A program made the position numbers and the translations under genes. DNA of 64,000 nt, taken from positions 7,060 to 71,059 of the forward strand of contig JAZRFY010000017.1 in NCBI GenBank assembly GCA_045643885.1. Direction: 5' to 3'. The first letter of the stretch is position 1. Each line of letters opens with the position of its first letter. Below are positions 27,658 through 61,463 of this stretch, in pieces. The notes beneath the pieces are model-generated. The model was not told the origin of the DNA. It searched no databases and saw nothing but the letters and a program-made list of their open reading frames with translations. Source of the stretch: Eubacteriales bacterium (GTDB taxonomy: Bacteria > Bacillota > Clostridia > Oscillospirales > CAG-272).

Positions 27658-27719
27658 TTGAAAAAAATAAAATTAAATGATAAAATTATACTGTGATAAT
27701 TTACGCATACCGTTGCGAA
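27658..27719 (+). promoter_or_regulatory. Promoter of CE8 gene with LacI-type operator-like palindrome
   Basis: TTGAAA-17 nt-TAAAAT (27658-27686); CGCATACCGTTGCG at 27704-27717. Confidence 0.5.
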
Positions 27720-27748
27720 AAATCTATGATTATCAGAAAGGAAAAACT

Positions 27749-30700
27749 ATGAAAAAGTATTTAGCTTTATTTCTCATCTGTTGCATGGTCATGACAGTTC
27801 TTGCTTCTTGCAGTTGGTTCCACAAGGAATGCACAGAGCACGTTGATGCAGATTCCAACTACGTCTGCGACAACTGTGGAGCAGAGCTTGAAAAGCCTCC
27901 CGTCATTTGTGACGAGCACACAGACAAGGATAACGACGCAAAGTGCGACGTTTGTGGAGAAGACATTCCCGATCCCCGTCCTCCCGTATGCGAGGAGCAT
28001 AAGGACGAAGACGGCGACCTTAAGTGTGACGCTTGTGCTCACGTAATGTTTGAGCAGGTTAAGTACACACTTAACATCAGTGATATCGAAACAGGTGTTC
28101 GTTCCGATAATGATATCATCAGCAAATTTACAATTGCTTCAGGTACTGAGGTAAGAAACAGAACAAAGTCTTTTGAGGGCGTTGAATATAGCAAGTCCGT
28201 TAAGATCGGTGGAACCGGTCATAAGATTGTGGTTGACGTTCCCGGTACAGGCACACTTAAATTTATCGTGCAGAACGGTTCAAGTGGTGCAGAAATGCAG
28301 TTTATCAAGGTTATAGGTCCTGACGGAAAAACTCAGGATATCGAATTCGTTGGTAGCATAGAATCCAGCCCCCTTGTTATGATCGAGGTTGAGGTTACTG
28401 AAGGTCAGTGGACTATCACTCGCGGTAAGAACGGTGGCACACAGGATATCTTCTATCTTGAGCTTGAATGCATCGTAGCGGTTGCTCCCGAAAACGGATT
28501 TGAGCTTGTAAGTGAAGGTAAGGTTGATTACCTTGTTGGAGAAGAGCTTAACTTTGCTAAGCTTTATCTCAATTCTACATTTGAAAACGGCAAGACAGAA
28601 ACTCTTCCTCTTGAAAACGTTGTAATCGATACATCCCTTGTAAATATGGGACAGTCAGGCACATATCCTATCACAATTAAATATGCAGAATATGAGCCCA
28701 TTACTTATTACGTAAACGTATATGCTCCCGAATCTATCAAGCTTGGCTTTGATGCTATTGAAAAGCTTGCTCAGAACTCCGCTGCAGGTAACGGTGTTTA
28801 CTACAACCACAGCTGGAAAGAGGTTTATATGATCGGTGAAGAGCTTGATACCGACGGTCTTTCTGTTATCGTAGTTGCTAGCTGCGGTGACAAAACGATC
28901 GAGTTCTTGGTTAAGGATTATGAGATCAATGGATTTGATTCCTCCTTTGCAGACTTCAACAAGCTCACAATCGTTGCACACGGACTTGAAACCGAGGTAA
29001 CAGTTCACGTTACTGAATCTCAGCCCACAGCTAACGAGGATGACGTTTATATGCTTCTCGTTGATCCTGCATACCTTGGTATTGCAGGTGCTATTAGTGG
29101 TCCTTACCATGTATTCAGCACTATCCAGGGTGCTCTTGACTACGCTGAACACATCGAAGATAGCGCAGTTAAGGAAATTTACGTTGCTCCCGGTCTCTAT
29201 ACAGAAAAGCTTGAAATCACAATTCCTAATCTTAAGCTCATCGGTATTGGCGACACTCCCGACGAGGTAGTTATCGAATGGGATTCTCTCTACGGTCTTG
29301 AGGATGCAGGTGGATTCGTTCACACCACAGACTCCACAGCAACTGTTGCCGTAAGAGAAAGCGCAGTTAACTGTGTGATCGAAAACGTAACTATTTCTAA
29401 CTACTGGAACACTCAGGAAAGAATGGATGAAGCAGGTCTTGCAATCGAAAGAGGTCTTGCACTTCTCGTTCAGTCCGACAGATTCATTATGAAGAACGGC
29501 GCGCTTCTCGGTATCCAGGATACACTTGAGCTTTTCACAGGCCGTCAGTATTTTGAAAACGTGTTCATTTCCGGTTATACCGACTTTATCTTCGGTACAA
29601 ACAACACAACATACTTTGAGGGTTGTACAATCCACGTTATCGACACTGAAAAGGACGATAAGGGAACAGCAGGTTATATCACAGCGTTCAAGGGCTCTAA
29701 CAAGAACGAATCCGACGCTATTACATACGGTGCTATCTTCGACGGATGTAACTTTACAGCTGACGAAGGCGTAACACTCGGCTGCACAGCAATCGGCCGT
29801 CCTTGGGGCGCATATGCTGCAGTTGCAGTTATGAATTCCGAGCTTGGTGGACACATCTCCACAAAGGGCTTCTCAACAAGCAAGAACGAGCGTTACGTTT
29901 CTATGACAGTTAAGCCCACAGATGCAACTGCTCAGTTTGTTGAATACAACAACACAGGTGCAGGTGCTATTACTGAAGAGGTTGCAGGTATGAGAATGCT
30001 CACAGATGAAGAGGCTGCAACATATGCAAACTTCGAAGTAATCTTTGGCACAACAAACAGAAACGTTTCTTATCTCGATCCTTGGGACCCCATGTCCGAA
30101 GAGGTTGTAGTAGATGACAGAACATACTATTACTTTAACGGTGGAAAGGGTACGTCCGGTACGTCCTACACTTACACAGATAACCTTCAGGGAACAACAG
30201 GCTCTATCGGTGACATCGCTATCGATGCTACAAAGGGCAAGGTTACTGCAAGAGGCTCTGACACACAGATCAATGCAGGTGCAAAGCTTACGTTCAATGT
30301 TGAAGCCGGCACACTCGTAACAGTAATCTCTTATCCCGGTTACGGTTATTACACACTCAACGGCGTTGCTCACAACGCAAACGATTCCTTCAGCCAGTAT
30401 TATGCAGAGGCAACTGAGGTTGTTTTTGAGGCTACTGCAACAGCATACATCTATCAGATCATTATCGATCCCAACAGTGATGCTCCCGAAGCACCCTCCA
30501 TCAATCAGATCAAGGTTGAGGGTATGAATACAAATTATACAGTTGGTGATGAGATCTCTCTTGAAGGTGCAAAGGTTAACGTATACTATTCCGATAACTC
30601 CATCGTAACTGTTTCCGACTATACTGTTGATTCAAGTGCAGTTAACAATGCAGAAGCAGGAACATATGACGTAGTATTCAGCTTTGGTGGTGTTTCTGCT

Positions 30701-31417
30701 ACAGTTTCTATAGTTTATGAGGGTGCTAATGCAGATCCAGCTATCACAGAAAATACTGTTCTTGATTTCACAACACAGGACGGCTTGGACGCAATCGCTA
30801 ACAACAAGAGAATAACAGTTGAAGCAGTTTCAGGTCAGTACTACTTCAATAACGGCAACAGCCGTTTTGAGGGAACTATCTCCTTCATGGTTAAGGCAGG
30901 CGCTAAGATTATCGTAACTCCTTACCACGATGCTAAGTACGTTTCTTACACAATTGGTTACCTTGGCGAAGAAGAGCTTATGACTTACACAGGCGCTTAC
31001 ACTTACGAGGTGGATTCCGATTGCACAATGGTTTATACAGGTCTTGCAGGCAACTATATCTGCTCAATTCAGATCGTATATCCCGCTGCTAAGGAAAATG
31101 CCAGCGTTACATTTGGTTCTGAAGGCAACTACAAAACATCTTCTGTGATCGACGTTAGCGGAATGAGCATAAGAGATAACGGTGGTAACAATAGCCAGCT
31201 TAGCTCAGGTACTATCAAGCTTACAGTATATGCAGGTGCAACAGTTACTGTTCACGGTTATCCCAGCTACACATCCTACACAATTAGTGACGGTATTAAC
31301 ACAACTGCAGAAATCAATGACTCAGAATACACATACGTTGTAGAGGCAGACGGTGAGCTTATCATCTCCGCTGTGAATTCAAACAACTATTTCTACGGTA
31401 TTGACATTACTTATTAA
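27749..31417 (+). CDS. Multimodular lipoprotein with CE8 pectinesterase domain, Ig-like domains and Cys/His/Asp repeats
   Basis: Lipobox LASC; PGLYTEKL, QDTL, DFIFG, GRPW CE8 motifs; Big_3-like segments; start reassigned to 27749 after GAAAGGA. Confidence 0.85.
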   Translation: MKKYLALFLICCMVMTVLASCSWFHKECTEHVDADSNYVCDNCGAELEKPPVICDEHTDKDNDAKCDVCGEDIPDPRPPVCEEHKDEDGDLKCDACAHVMFEQVKYTLNISDIETGVRSDNDIISKFTIASGTEVRNRTKSFEGVEYSKSVKIGGTGHKIVVDVPGTGTLKFIVQNGSSGAEMQFIKVIGPDGKTQDIEFVGSIESSPLVMIEVEVTEGQWTITRGKNGGTQDIFYLELECIVAVAPENGFELVSEGKVDYLVGEELNFAKLYLNSTFENGKTETLPLENVVIDTSLVNMGQSGTYPITIKYAEYEPITYYVNVYAPESIKLGFDAIEKLAQNSAAGNGVYYNHSWKEVYMIGEELDTDGLSVIVVASCGDKTIEFLVKDYEINGFDSSFADFNKLTIVAHGLETEVTVHVTESQPTANEDDVYMLLVDPAYLGIAGAISGPYHVFSTIQGALDYAEHIEDSAVKEIYVAPGLYTEKLEITIPNLKLIGIGDTPDEVVIEWDSLYGLEDAGGFVHTTDSTATVAVRESAVNCVIENVTISNYWNTQERMDEAGLAIERGLALLVQSDRFIMKNGALLGIQDTLELFTGRQYFENVFISGYTDFIFGTNNTTYFEGCTIHVIDTEKDDKGTAGYITAFKGSNKNESDAITYGAIFDGCNFTADEGVTLGCTAIGRPWGAYAAVAVMNSELGGHISTKGFSTSKNERYVSMTVKPTDATAQFVEYNNTGAGAITEEVAGMRMLTDEEAATYANFEVIFGTTNRNVSYLDPWDPMSEEVVVDDRTYYYFNGGKGTSGTSYTYTDNLQGTTGSIGDIAIDATKGKVTARGSDTQINAGAKLTFNVEAGTLVTVISYPGYGYYTLNGVAHNANDSFSQYYAEATEVVFEATATAYIYQIIIDPNSDAPEAPSINQIKVEGMNTNYTVGDEISLEGAKVNVYYSDNSIVTVSDYTVDSSAVNNAEAGTYDVVFSFGGVSATVSIVYEGANADPAITENTVLDFTTQDGLDAIANNKRITVEAVSGQYYFNNGNSRFEGTISFMVKAGAKIIVTPYHDAKYVSYTIGYLGEEELMTYTGAYTYEVDSDCTMVYTGLAGNYICSIQIVYPAAKENASVTFGSEGNYKTSSVIDVSGMSIRDNGGNNSQLSSGTIKLTVYAGATVTVHGYPSYTSYTISDGINTTAEINDSEYTYVVEADGELIISAVNSNNYFYGIDITY

Positions 31418-31435
31418 TAATAAGATAATAAAAAT

Positions 31436-31467
31436 AACCCCTCGGATTTTTCCGAGGGGTGTTTTTT
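31436..31467. terminator. Bidirectional terminator
   Basis: ACCCCTCGGA-tttt-TCCGAGGGGT with flanking A and T runs. Confidence 0.8.
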
Positions 31468-31505
31468 GTTTGTTTTGTTTATTGATTCAGTTTTATCGGA
31501 TTTTA

Positions 31506-32858
31506 TTACTTGCTCTTTTTAAGGTTTACAAGAGCATTTGTGATAATACCAAGGATGAGTGAGCAAGCAACTGTTGTGATTGTGATTTCACCCAATGTAA
31601 GGGTAAGACCACCGATACCGGAGATAAGGATTACAGATACTACAAAGAGGTTTCTGTTATCGTTGAGGTCAACGTTCTGCACCATTTTAAGACCGCTTAC
31701 TGCGATGAAGCCGTAGAGAGCTACGCAGATGCCACCCATTACGCAAGAGGGGATTGTGGACAAGAATGTTGCGAAAGGACCGAAGAAGCTGATCACGATT
31801 GCAAGGATAGCTGTTACAACGATTGTTGCAACGGACGCGTTGCCGGAGATCGCTACGCAACCAACGGATTCGCCGTATGTTGTATTGGGACATCCACCGA
31901 AGAGTGCACCTGCCATTGAACCAAGACCGTCACCAAGGAGTGTTCTGTGAAGACCGGGTTCTTCAAGAAGATCCTTTTCGATGATGGAAGAAAGGTTCTT
32001 GTGGTCTGCGATGTGCTCTGCGAATACTACGAATGCAACGGGCATATAAGCGACTGCGATTGTGCCGATGTATGCTCCAAGAGTTCCGTTTGTACCGAAG
32101 TCATATTCACCGCTGAATGCTGTAAGGAATGTGAAGTCGGGAATCCACTGGATATTTTCAAACTTTGCAAAGTCGATAAGAAGAAGTGCAGAGTTGTTTG
32201 TGAGGTGACCGATAACTGTGAAGATTGTTGCTACTACGTAACCTGCAAGGATACCGCAGATGAAGGGAATCATCTTGATTGTCTTTTTGCCGTATGTTGA
32301 GCAGAGGATTGTTGTGAAAAGAGTTACAAGGCCACAGATAAGTGCTACGTAAGGAGAAGCGATGCTTACACCTTCAACGAGCACGCTACCCTTAGAGAGG
32401 TCGCCGATTGCATTGCCTGCAAGAGAAAGACCGATGATAGCAACTGTAGGACCAATAATAACTGCGGGCATAAGCTTGTTAATCCAGTTTACACCTACGA
32501 GCTTAACAATGATACCAAGAACAACGTAAACAAGACCTGCAGAAACTGCACCAATGATAAGACCAAGGTAACCAACGCTCATTGAAACGCCACCTGCGAA
32601 CGCAGCCAACATAGAACCAATGAATGCGAAAGAAGAACCAAGGAATACAGGGCTCTTAAACTTTGTCAAGAAGAGATACACAAGTGTACCAACACCTGCT
32701 CCGAAAAGAGCTGCTGTGGGGGACATACCGTTACCGATGATGCCGGGAACTGCGATTGTTGCAGCCATGATTGCAAGAAGCTGCTGGAAAGCGAACAAGA
32801 TGGTCTTTACATAACCGATCTGCTTCGGCTTTGCGTCAATGTTGTAGATAAGTTTCAT
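31506..32858 (-). CDS. NCS2-family uracil permease (UraA/PyrP-like)
   Basis: SPVFLGSSFAF, EHIADH, GLHRTLLGDG, PNTTYGE signature. Confidence 0.92.
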   Translation of the reverse strand: MKLIYNIDAKPKQIGYVKTILFAFQQLLAIMAATIAVPGIIGNGMSPTAALFGAGVGTLVYLFLTKFKSPVFLGSSFAFIGSMLAAFAGGVSMSVGYLGLIIGAVSAGLVYVVLGIIVKLVGVNWINKLMPAVIIGPTVAIIGLSLAGNAIGDLSKGSVLVEGVSIASPYVALICGLVTLFTTILCSTYGKKTIKMIPFICGILAGYVVATIFTVIGHLTNNSALLLIDFAKFENIQWIPDFTFLTAFSGEYDFGTNGTLGAYIGTIAVAYMPVAFVVFAEHIADHKNLSSIIEKDLLEEPGLHRTLLGDGLGSMAGALFGGCPNTTYGESVGCVAISGNASVATIVVTAILAIVISFFGPFATFLSTIPSCVMGGICVALYGFIAVSGLKMVQNVDLNDNRNLFVVSVILISGIGGLTLTLGEITITTVACSLILGIITNALVNLKKSK

Positions 32859-32904
32859 TTAAACTTTCCTCCTGATTTTTTATTTGAATTTTTATTTTGA
32901 CCAT

Positions 32905-32930
32905 AAAAAAAGCTGACGGGATACGTCAGC
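32905..32930 (-). terminator. Attenuator-type intrinsic terminator in the permease leader
   Basis: Minus strand GCTGACG-tatcc-CGTCAGC-TTTTTTT, between the promoter and the permease RBS. Confidence 0.8.
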
Positions 32931-32936
32931 AATAAA

Positions 32937-33017
32937 TCAAATATTAAAAGAAAAAACAAAAAGGGAATAGGACACCACGGCAACGCAAATTCTGTTTTTG
33001 AAGATAGAATGCATCAT
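32937..33017 (-). CDS. Putative 26-aa leader peptide MMHSIFKNRICVAVVSYSLFVFSFNI
   Basis: AAAGGTGG SD 8 nt before ATG; U-run-rich 3' half; TGA 6 nt before terminator stem; below the ORF-track size cutoff. Confidence 0.6.
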   Translation of the reverse strand: MMHSIFKNRICVAVVSYSLFVFSFNI

Positions 33018-33051
33018 CGTTTTGTCCACCTTTCTGTTTACACTGGGAGTG

Positions 33052-33080
33052 ATTATATCACAATAAAAACACAATGTCAA
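33052..33080 (-). promoter_or_regulatory. Sigma-A promoter of uracil permease leader
   Basis: Perfect TTGACA-17 nt-TATAAT with extended TG. Confidence 0.85.
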
Positions 33081-33377
33081 GAGAAATTTTAAGAAAATTT
33101 CAAAAAAATTAAATAAAAAAATCGAAACAAAGGTTTATTTTGCACTTTTTGACAAAATAAGGTGGTTTATTTTGCATCTTATGCTATTTTCTTTTTCATT
33201 TGCATAATGTATAATGATTACACAAGGTTGAGATATATGATTATAAATATTTGGTTAATTCAAATTTCAAAATATTGACACCATGTGAAAAATATGCTAA
33301 AATAATCTTAGTTGTATAACGAATGCAGATTCGTTTATATATAATATGAAAAAACTATATAAAAAGGAGAAAAAAAT

Positions 33378-34322
33378 ATGGTATATGGTATTATTGCTGT
33401 AGTTGTTATCGTACTCATCATTTCTTGCATTAAGGTAGTTCCTCATACAGAGAGCTACGTTATTGAGCGTCTTGGTAAATTCCACGACGTTTGGGGTGCA
33501 GGTCTTCACCTTCTCGCTCCCTTCGGCATTGACAAGGTAGTTGCCCGTGCAACAACTAAGGAAAAGGTGCTTGACACACCTCCTCAGTCCGTTATCACAA
33601 GTGATAACGTTCCTCTTACAATCGACGCGGTTGTATATCACAAAACATTCGAGCCCAAGCTCTATGCTTACGGTGCTGCTAATCCCGTTGAGGCTCTTGC
33701 AAACCTCACAACAACAACTCTTCGTAACATCGTTGGTGAGCTTACACTCGACGAATCTCTTACATCCCGTGACTCCATCAACGCAAAGATGACTGCTTCT
33801 CTTGACGCAGCTACTGACGAATGGGGTATTCGCGTGACTCGTGTTGAAATTCGTAACATCACACCTTCTGCAGATATTCGTGAATCCATGGAAAAGCAGA
33901 TGAAGGCTGAAAGAAACAGACGTGAAACATTGCTTGAAGCAGAAGGTCACAAGCAGGCTGTTATCACTCGTGCAGAGGGTGATAAGCAGGCGATGATCCT
34001 TGCAGCTGAAGGTGAAAGAGATGCTCGCATTGCTCGTGCTGAAGGTGAAGCTAAGGCAGTTCTTCTTCAAAAGCAGGCAGAGGCAGACGGTCTTCGTGCC
34101 ATCATGTCCGCATGTCCCACACCCGAGGTTATCGAGCTTAAGAGATATGAGGCTCTCGTTGAAATGGCTAACGGTACAGCTTCCAAGCTTATCGTTCCTA
34201 CTGATACAGTTGAGATGGTTAAGAAGAATGCCATCTTTACAGAAACAACAGGTCTTGGTGACGACACACCCGCAGCCAAGAAGCCCACTAAGTCCGCAAA
34301 TAAGGACGTTTGCTGCGACTAA
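33378..34322 (+). CDS. SPFH/band-7 (stomatin/QmcA-like) membrane protein
   Basis: YVIERLGKF, QSVITSDNV, TTLRNIVGEL.LDE.LTSRD.IN, MEKQMKAER, AEG repeats. Confidence 0.92.
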   Translation: MVYGIIAVVVIVLIISCIKVVPHTESYVIERLGKFHDVWGAGLHLLAPFGIDKVVARATTKEKVLDTPPQSVITSDNVPLTIDAVVYHKTFEPKLYAYGAANPVEALANLTTTTLRNIVGELTLDESLTSRDSINAKMTASLDAATDEWGIRVTRVEIRNITPSADIRESMEKQMKAERNRRETLLEAEGHKQAVITRAEGDKQAMILAAEGERDARIARAEGEAKAVLLQKQAEADGLRAIMSACPTPEVIELKRYEALVEMANGTASKLIVPTDTVEMVKKNAIFTETTGLGDDTPAAKKPTKSANKDVCCD

Positions 34323-34334
34323 TTACTAAATGAT

Positions 34335-34523
34335 ATGGCAAACAAGAATAAAAGATTTATATTGACATACTCAGAAAATGCGTTTTCAGGACATGGTTTT
34401 GAAATCTGGGTGGATAAGGAAACAGGTGTAAACTACGTTTGGCGCGGATCCGGTTATGCAGGCGGTCTTACCGTTTTGCTCGACCGAGACGGAAAGCCCG
34501 TTGTAACACCCGTTGAGAAATAA
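34335..34523 (+). CDS. DUF6440-family small protein
   Basis: I.VDKETGVNY......GGLTVLLDRDGKP pattern. Confidence 0.75.
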   Translation: MANKNKRFILTYSENAFSGHGFEIWVDKETGVNYVWRGSGYAGGLTVLLDRDGKPVVTPVEK

Positions 34524-34574
34524 GTAATTAACTAAGGGGGAGTTGAAAAGCTCCCCTTTTAAATAAGGAAAGCT

Positions 34575-35048
34575 ATGAGATTAAAATTCAAACAAAGATT
34601 TTTTTCGTGGTTTGATAGCTACGATATATATGACGAGGCGGGAAACGTAGTTTACTGTGTAAAGGGTGAGCTTTCCTGGGGCCATCTTCTTCGTATATAC
34701 GATGCAAACGGACGCGAGCTTGGACACATAAAGCAAGAGATATTCACCTTTTTACCCGAGTTTCATATGTACGTTGGAACCGAGAGGGTTGGCAGCATAT
34801 GCCGTGAGCTTACTCTATTCAAACCTAAATATAGCATCGACTATAAGGGCTGGAAGGTCGAGGGCGACTGGGTAGAATGGGATTATGCCATTTATAATGC
34901 CTCAGGCACACATATTGCGCAGATTTCAAAGGAGATCTTTAACTTTACCGATACCTATATTATCGATATAAGATATCCTGAGGACGCACTTTATGCTCTT
35001 ATGCTCGTCCTTGCCATTGATGCTGAAAAATGCTCAAGGGATAATTGA
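34575..35048 (+). CDS. LURP-one-related / tubby-C scramblase-like protein
   Basis: KQRFFSWFDSYDIYDE.G..VY.VKG, W.VEGD..EWDY, FTDTY.IDI, VLAID. Confidence 0.85.
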   Translation: MRLKFKQRFFSWFDSYDIYDEAGNVVYCVKGELSWGHLLRIYDANGRELGHIKQEIFTFLPEFHMYVGTERVGSICRELTLFKPKYSIDYKGWKVEGDWVEWDYAIYNASGTHIAQISKEIFNFTDTYIIDIRYPEDALYALMLVLAIDAEKCSRDN

Positions 35049-61280: not shown

Positions 61281-61357
<77 letters not shown>

Positions 61358-61374
61358 ATATCTGGTGATTAAGG

Positions 61375-61463
61375 TGGTGCCGGGAACGGGAATCGAACCC
61401 GTACGGTGCTCTCGCACCACGGGATTTTAAGTCCCGGGCGTCTGCCAATTTCGCCACCCCGGC
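61375..61463 (-). tRNA. tRNA-Leu (UAA)
   Basis: GCCGGGG...GACTTAAAATC anticodon arm, long variable arm GGTGCGAGAGCACC, GGTTCGATTCC, CCA end. Confidence 0.95.

Follow-up and report, generated by a model that had tools for sequence, protein, structure and literature searches.

A candidate ribosome-dependent transcription attenuator ahead of a uracil-type permease gene in a clostridial lineage lacking PyrR

The leader of a uracil-type permease gene is described here from a 64,000-nt stretch of DNA of Eubacteriales bacterium (order Oscillospirales, CAG-272; contig JAZRFY010000017.1), referred to below as the window. The permease gene lies on the minus strand (31506..32858, ATG at 32858) and encodes a 450-aa protein assigned, from NCBIfam matches and context, to the NCS2 nucleobase:cation symporters of the uracil-permease type. 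Its best NCBIfam matches are TIGR00801 (261.8 bits, cut-off 291.8) and the uracil permease model NF007995 (260.3 bits, cut-off 477). Homologues are common in Clostridia-type metagenome-assembled genomes (MAGs), with at least 595 relatives, from which each query retained the best 80. In 30 of the best 80 homologous loci a PyrR-like gene is found directly upstream, ending 24–87 nt (once 427 nt) away; one of these genes, that of locus L004, is confirmed as PyrR with 227 bits on NF003549 (cut-off 138). Because relatives carry a PyrR-like gene in this position, the transporter can be identified by context as a PyrP-type uracil permease.

The leader, read along the minus strand, begins with a promoter of the sigma-70 type (33052..33080) that matches the TTGACA-17-TGnTATAAT consensus at 12/12 positions, with the TG extension. 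The −35 element TTGACA (33080-33075) and the −10 element TATAAT (33057-33052) are separated by a 17-nt spacer, with TG at 33060-33059 (TGaTATAAT). This is the one perfect match among the 10 promoter-like sites found in a scan of 31000-35000, and a near-consensus promoter occupies the equivalent position in the related leaders displayed. Transcription likely starts at about 33045-33044, judged from promoter spacing alone. A Shine-Dalgarno (SD) sequence at 33026..33035 (AGAAAGGTGG, within which AAAGGTGG spans 33033-33026) is located 8 nt ahead of an ATG at 33017, which opens an upstream open reading frame (uORF) of 26 codons (32937..33017) with a U-rich 3′ half and a TGA stop (32939-32937). The U-tract (32931..32962), a proposed pause zone sensitive to uridine triphosphate (UTP), consists of runs of U5 (32962-32958), U6 (32956-32951), U4 (32949-32946), U3 (32941-32939) and a further U3, and it reaches the terminator. 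Six nucleotides past the uORF stop begins an intrinsic terminator (32905..32930) with a 7-bp stem of which five pairs are G-C (arms GCTGACG and CGTCAGC around the 5-nt loop tatcc, 32930-32912), followed by T7 (32911-32905). An A-rich spacer with the permease ribosome-binding site (RBS) AGGAGG (32873-32868) fills the remaining 32859..32904, where the promoter scan found no promoter-like site. The original prediction, made from the sequence without database searches, had named the promoter, SD, uORF, U-runs, stop spacing, hairpin and permease RBS, and every one of them was recovered in its place on the minus strand.

No Rfam family matches the leader at gathering score; at E≤10 there are 13 chance-level matches, none of them PyrR, and Phe_leader reaches 15.8 bits (gathering score 55). 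The one metatranscriptome run found (X1, share 0.06) yielded contigs only on 31722-32477, a conserved part of the permease gene, and left the leader uncovered. Since their identity is mostly 90–95%, these contigs stem from relatives and are uninformative either way on the leader.

An arrangement of this kind is exceptional in its own genome. One rule set was applied to the 1.56 Mb of sequence (29% T), which contains 567 terminator-like hairpins; a leader was defined as an SD-led ATG open reading frame (ORF) of 10–45 codons that ends −8 to +10 nt from the stem with a gene behind. Three of the 567 hairpins, the window's leader included, satisfy the rule. The other two are ordinary gene ends read in another frame, each then followed by a fresh promoter, and were set aside, which leaves the window's leader as the sole true case. 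Its stem is preceded by the most T-rich flank of the entire set, with 69% T in the 35 nt ahead of the stem (rank 1/567; mean 27%, sd 9%).

The uORF was compared across 16 leaders, namely the 14 from the genus together with those of L118 and L079. The ATG-to-stop frame, on whose conservation the original prediction had staked itself, is open in 16/16, while stops occur in the +1 frame of 13/16 and in the +2 frame of 14/16; composition-matched shuffles of each ORF body are open in just 10–36% of trials. In 16/16 leaders the ATG has an SD-like run of purines ahead of it. The uORF has 26 codons in 11 leaders and 22, 25, 27, 27 and 35 codons in the remainder. Its stop lies 4–7 nt ahead of the stem in 15/16 leaders and within the 5′ arm in L171. 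The stop codon is TGA in 15/16 leaders, whereas among 942 long frames of the genome TGA ends 24.7% and TAA 70.7%. The uORF stop of L118 and of L171 sits within a GCTGA context that resembles the GCTGA of the stem itself.

The encoded peptide is far less uniform than the frame. The minimum numbers of changes at the three codon positions are 21/20/22, without a third-position excess, and for codons 2–12 the ratio of nonsynonymous to synonymous change (pN/pS) is 0.70, compared with 0.76 and 0.76 in the shifted frames. Within the close group the C-terminal half is kept and the N-terminal half drifts. The peptides of L183, L182, L171, L118 and L079 are unrelated, although all are full of U-rich codons. 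The alignment of related leaders proposed in the original prediction came out as anticipated there: an SD, a start codon, an open frame, U-runs and the distance between stop and hairpin are kept in 16/16, and the distant peptides are unrelated.

A further element of the leader is a hairpin, P1 (33039-32954), whose 5′ strand comprises the SD and AUG of the uORF and whose 3′ strand, formed by the beginning of the U-tract, acts as an anti-SD strand. In P1, AAACAGAAAGG.UGGAC..ACG.AUGAUGC pairs with GCGUUG.CCG..GUGUCC..CCUUUUUGUUU. Because of this pairing the SD and AUG are expected to become inaccessible when transcription has passed the first U-runs. The 198-nt leader has a minimum free energy (MFE) of −48.2 kcal/mol (z = −4.09), and none of 200 shuffles was equally stable. 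Folding covered 15 leaders, and a hairpin of the same kind, enclosing SD and AUG, is found in 15/15. On the model-fitted alignment A3, which is biased to structure by its construction, 90.1% of cells are paired as against at most 59% with the partners slid, and both-sided changes occur in 16/28 pairs, a number reached by 0/500 shuffles. Among these covarying pairs is one in the terminator stem, with a compensatory C-G to U-A change in 4/15 leaders. The internal loops of P1 are invariant inside the close group; in the divergent L183, L171, L118 and L278 the loop and bulge sequences differ and the pairing alone is kept.

No pairing that would compete with the terminator arms was found in the MFE, centroid or consensus folds, in agreement with the original prediction, which had seen no obvious antiterminator. 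P1, however, had escaped that otherwise correct list of elements. The MFE structure also contains a pairing of the 5′-most CUCCC with the permease SD, which was discarded, as these bases are probably upstream of the transcription start and are unconserved.

The window's lineage appears to lack the usual pyrimidine regulator of Firmicutes. The PyrR protein (NF003549) was found above cut-off in 0/23 genomes of the genus (best score 39.6 bits against 138) and in none of the three outlying leader-bearing genomes, as compared with 55/151 genomes of the family sample. In the own genome, the ORF that comes closest to PyrR is hypoxanthine phosphoribosyltransferase, Hpt, with 213.6 bits on TIGR01203. 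The RF00515 model of the PyrR site matched nothing in the leader (E≤10) or in the own genome; in relatives' loci the same model reported one sub-threshold site (L009) in the 8 loci searched at E≤0.05, while 20 loci gave none at gathering score. RF00515 may under-detect PyrR sites in these Clostridia. The absence of a PyrR site asserted by the original prediction is borne out to this extent. Upstream of the permease in L009, L013, L022, L061 and L062, a common motif, UCUUUAAG...GGUACnGAGAGACCG, resembles a PyrR loop by eye; this interpretation was not relied upon, since RF00515 reports L009 alone, at 40.6 bits (gathering score 54).

The complement of pyrimidine genes is also reduced. In the own genome, which is 85% complete, pyrB, carB and pyrG gave no match and pyrE only weak matches below cut-off; upp is present. 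Within the genus, pyrB is found above cut-off in G294, G295 and G303 and in part in G313, none of which has the permease, and it is found in 0/14 of the permease-bearing genomes, counts that come from genus kin and are not independent. Because pyrB is scarce and never found with the permease, and because the own genome has few pyr genes, most species of the genus are likely pyrimidine auxotrophs. Since the leader occurs, within the genus, in genomes without pyrB, these may depend on the permease as their chief source of pyrimidines.

A covariance model (R1) built from 10 leaders matched 14 of the 23 genus genomes, 13 of them at E≤3.4e-17 and G258 at 3.6e-4. The permease is present in exactly the same 14 genomes, and the leader precedes it in 14/14. 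The own genome contains a single copy, all other matches having E>0.6. Among 150 genomes sampled from the family, R1 found only the two genus members and one weak match, and a sample of 150 further genomes from the order yielded nothing credible. The layout of the window is seen only in L001, L016 and L079 of the best 80 permease loci. A scan with the pattern of the terminator arms gave 97 matches in 84 stretches; a permease lies behind nine of the 97, and a uORF is present in 9/9 of those. Looser analogues of the leader were found in three other Firmicute genomes. In L161 (2310-2790; = L180, G298:C192), and in that genome only, about 450 nt separate the leader terminator from the permease, and this stretch contains at least two copies of a repeat of about 60 nt.

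Leaders of similar layout also precede the permease in other lineages. A second lineage is represented by L278:445-603 on the plus strand (Coprobacillus sp. CAG:698) and by G321:C59:4735-4892 on the minus strand (= L307). Its leader, present in 2/7 genomes of L278's genus and unrelated in sequence to that of the window, consists of an SD and a 26-codon uORF whose stop lies where the 5′ edge of a terminator begins; the permease orthologue comes next. A hairpin (z = −3.49) again encloses SD and AUG, and its closing strand is a U6 run. In L079 (2310-2500, plus strand), whose permease is 69% identical to that of the window, a 27-codon uORF ending TTTTTTGA stops 6 nt before a terminator with an ACTGAC... 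stem. The nearest permease relatives of L079 (L202–L208) have quite different upstream regions without the leader, and among the best 80 relatives of its permease a uORF ending at a terminator is found in L079 and L278 only. This pattern suggests that the layouts of L079 and L278/G321 arose by repeated invention, or came by transfer with the permease, in gut Firmicutes without PyrR.

The region has the features expected of a pyrE/pyrBI-type attenuator, that is, a terminator ahead of a pyrimidine gene, a stop codon within about 10 nt of the stem, a U-rich flank, and no antiterminator. Because no alternative pairing with the terminator arms was found, the element is read here as belonging to this type. 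We consider it roughly an even call that the region is a ribosome-dependent transcription attenuator of the uracil-type permease that works without an antiterminator. Relevant precedent comes from E. coli, where bringing a stop codon closer to a terminator, from a distance of 28 bp to one of 5 bp, lowered termination from about 90% to less than 10%, an effect that required translation of the ORF (PMC4824070); amino-acid attenuators are described there as keeping a stop-terminator distance of more than 20 bp, thereby avoiding it. We infer that the uORF is translated and that RNA polymerase pauses in the U-tract, with UTP as the most likely signal.

In such a scheme the strong promoter would supply leader RNA that by default terminates at 32930-32905. 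The sole escape would be a ribosome that translates the uORF of 26 codons and follows the polymerase closely; once its A site has reached the TGA or its vicinity, 6 nt ahead of the stem, it would cover the 5′ arm of the terminator. Synthesis of the 3′ strand of P1, the start of the U-tract, would at once lead to sequestration of the SD and AUG of the uORF, and because P1 hides these signals ribosome loading would be confined to a short co-transcriptional interval. At low UTP the polymerase would be slow or paused in the U5, U6 and U4 runs, closure of P1 would be late, the ribosome could catch up and the permease mRNA would be completed. At high UTP the polymerase would outrun the ribosome, P1 and the terminator would form, and transcription would stop. 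A single U-tract could then perform three jobs, as the anti-SD strand of a timer hairpin, as a UTP-dependent pause zone, and as the latter half of a uORF that brings the ribosome to rest on the terminator. Low UTP would in effect create, on demand, the coupling of transcription and translation that is otherwise absent in Firmicutes. This more specific proposal, a protein-free kinetic UTP sensor suited to bacteria whose polymerase outruns the ribosome, is put forward only tentatively.

The ribosome-coupled pyrimidine attenuator suggested in the original prediction thus passes its comparative predictions, with P1 as an addition to it. Its weaker suggestion of nucleotide-dependent start-site switching finds no support. 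The bases between the −10 element and a CAGTG motif vary (cactcc, ctctct, ttgagc, ctcaac, ctatcg and others) and contain no conserved homopolymer run, so that the 6–9 nt past the −10 element, where spacing places the start, lack the constancy expected of reiterative transcription or start-site switching.

Several observations weigh against a UTP-sensing attenuator. One is kinetic: in B. subtilis the polymerase is reported to outrun ribosomes (PMC13323073), and the coupling needed here is for that reason not a given. The U-richness of the leader is also partly accounted for by the anti-SD role of the 3′ strand of P1, a hairpin that in addition alters the likely kinetics. In the second lineage (L278/G321) the terminator flank is only about 42% T and holds a single U6 run. 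For codons 13–26 of the uORF, pN/pS is 0.39, compared with 0.79 and 1.16 in the shifted frames, a mild signal of some peptide constraint that is inseparable from constraints on the RNA. The outlying leader-bearing genomes G315 and G316 do have pyrB. All genomes compared are MAGs, the own genome being of the incomplete kind noted above. Finally, the pyr operons of G303, G294 and G315, which are likewise without PyrR, and the upp gene of the own genome have plain promoters and short 5′ untranslated regions. The operon starts of these PyrR-less relatives (L303:1990-2154; L305, reverse, 2250-2400; L304:440-520) have near-consensus promoters, and no attenuator is visible ahead of any of the three. 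Because the pyr operons and upp are without the leader, the device belongs to the permease alone and is not a general pyrimidine regulator.

This last observation bears on the alternative that survives best, in which occlusion of the terminator is the same and the signal is something other than UTP, such as translation capacity or growth state, pausing of the NusG/NusA type at T-rich non-template DNA whatever the UTP level, or charged tRNA for the U-rich codons (Phe, Ser, Ile or Tyr). The U-tract contains TTGTTT, TTTTTT and TTCTTT, which we take to fit a NusG pause motif. The relatives' pyr operons do without the device. NusG-dependent pauses at T-rich sites are, moreover, reported to give translation of the B. 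subtilis yxjB (tlrB) leader peptide time to begin (PMC6851288). Against these points, a uracil-type transporter in genomes without pyrB makes a pyrimidine signal the most economical. Charged tRNA would be an awkward signal, because a ribosome waiting at a hungry Phe or Ser codon, at least 18 nt before the stem, would leave the terminator free, and because uptake would drop on amino-acid starvation, an odd logic for a permease. The leader likewise differs from amino-acid attenuators of the trpL/pheL type, with no codon cluster, no antiterminator and a gap of 6 nt; sensing of phenylalanine, which the original prediction had itself raised as the competitor to UTP, fits this geometry poorly, the four Phe codons being scattered. 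We regard a signal other than UTP as rather unlikely overall.

The conservation of P1 invites a different explanation, namely that a trans-acting protein, small RNA (sRNA) or ligand binds P1 or the U-tract and that the uORF is a mere expression platform. The covariation in P1 and the invariant internal loops of the close group would be in keeping with a binding site. The loops and bulges vary, however, in L183, L171, L118 and L278, where pairing is all that is retained, and a single hairpin without a junction would make a poor aptamer; with its variable loops and without a match to any Rfam family, the leader does not resemble a riboswitch. Nor is there a candidate regulator gene adjoining the leader, the neighbours being HflK-like and pectinesterase-like. 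Control by a trans-acting factor is accordingly improbable.

Slightly less probable still is that the promoter, uORF and terminator form a free-standing small gene, for a hydrophobic 26-aa peptide or a stable sRNA, and that the permease is expressed by constitutive leak without any sensing. The strong promoter, good SD and strong terminator would suit such a gene, as would the mildly lower in-frame pN/pS of the C-terminal half. Yet the peptides are unrelated in L183, L171, L118, L079, L278 and G321, whereas uORF length (22–35 codons, mostly 26) and the place of the stop are kept; the completed RNA hides the SD and AUG, which would be odd for a translated gene; and the unit is always found with the permease, 14/14 in the genus. 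A TnaC-like mechanism, in which a nascent peptide recognises a pyrimidine metabolite and the ribosome, arrested by it at the UGA, masks the terminator, is very improbable despite the preference for TGA stops and the conserved C-terminal half in the close group, because no residue pattern is common to the lineages and because P1 pairing and the U-tract explain the conserved stretch equally well.

On the far side of the permease, at 27677-31417 on the plus strand, lies a gene for a protein of 1246 aa whose middle part resembles a pectinesterase (88.9 bits, far under cut-off). An HflK/SPFH-like protein is encoded divergently from the leader at 33378-34322 on the plus strand, with its own TTGACA-17-TAAAAT promoter (33275-33303). 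Two tRNA genes (61283-61463, minus strand) are the only Rfam matches at gathering score in the whole window.

If a UTP-coupled attenuator is indeed what the leader encodes, it would represent an independent second invention of this kind of control, in a lineage that lost PyrR. It would also provide a natural test object for transcription-translation coupling in Firmicutes with a slowed polymerase, and, at about 140 nt and without a protein partner, a candidate part for nucleotide-responsive expression control. To our knowledge, UTP-sensitive ribosome-polymerase coupling for pyrimidine control has been described in enteric bacteria, and Firmicutes are taken as users of PyrR. In the literature covered, which was partial, neither a leader-peptide attenuator on a uracil permease nor a UTP-type attenuator in Clostridia is described.

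Among the known systems, PyrR attenuation of pyrP and pyr operons in Firmicutes shares with the present leader the target gene, an orthologous uracil permease, and premature termination. It differs in its reliance on the PyrR protein, a binding loop and an antiterminator/anti-antiterminator pair, none of which was found here. In E. coli upp-uraA, UTP-sensitive reiterative transcription ties uracil uptake to UTP, as far as is known without a regulatory protein. Control there is exerted when transcription initiates and depends on a run of T where it starts, whereas no conserved homopolymer run follows the −10 element here.

Leader peptides were long considered rare in Firmicutes (PMC2965389). 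A likeness exists with B. subtilis yxjB/tlrB, which combines a leader peptide, an intrinsic terminator and T-rich pause sites in a Firmicute host (PMC6851288). The uORF attenuators of Firmicute resistance genes sense drug-stalled ribosomes via alternative RNA structures, in contrast to the leader described here, where no such structures were found and the gene is metabolic.

The enteric attenuators are the closest in principle. According to the review of Turnbough and Switzer, pyrBI reportedly has a leader peptide and a U-rich pause region before the terminator, which is blocked by the ribosome at low UTP. The dedicated leader peptide (pyrL) and the U-rich region just before the terminator are features in common with the present leader. 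The pyrBI terminator, however, lies inside the leader ORF, while here the stop precedes the terminator by 6 nt, the leader is shorter, and its origin is independent. An SD-burying hairpin is, as far as we know, not part of the pyrBI model. Pause-mediated coupling is mentioned for the 135-bp pyrBI leader gene (PMC4824070).

In E. coli, how far the rph stop lies from the attenuator determines the regulation of pyrE (PMC2784333). The leader described here departs from rph-pyrE in having a dedicated 26-codon leader ORF rather than the end of a real gene, a transporter as its target, a Clostridia-type Firmicute host, an added SD/AUG hairpin, and no sequence homology. In its logic rph-pyrE is nonetheless like the proposed attenuator of the window, with an ORF that ends a few nucleotides before the terminator, a leading ribosome that occludes the stem (as it would here), no need of an antiterminator or a regulatory protein, and a pyrimidine gene as the target.

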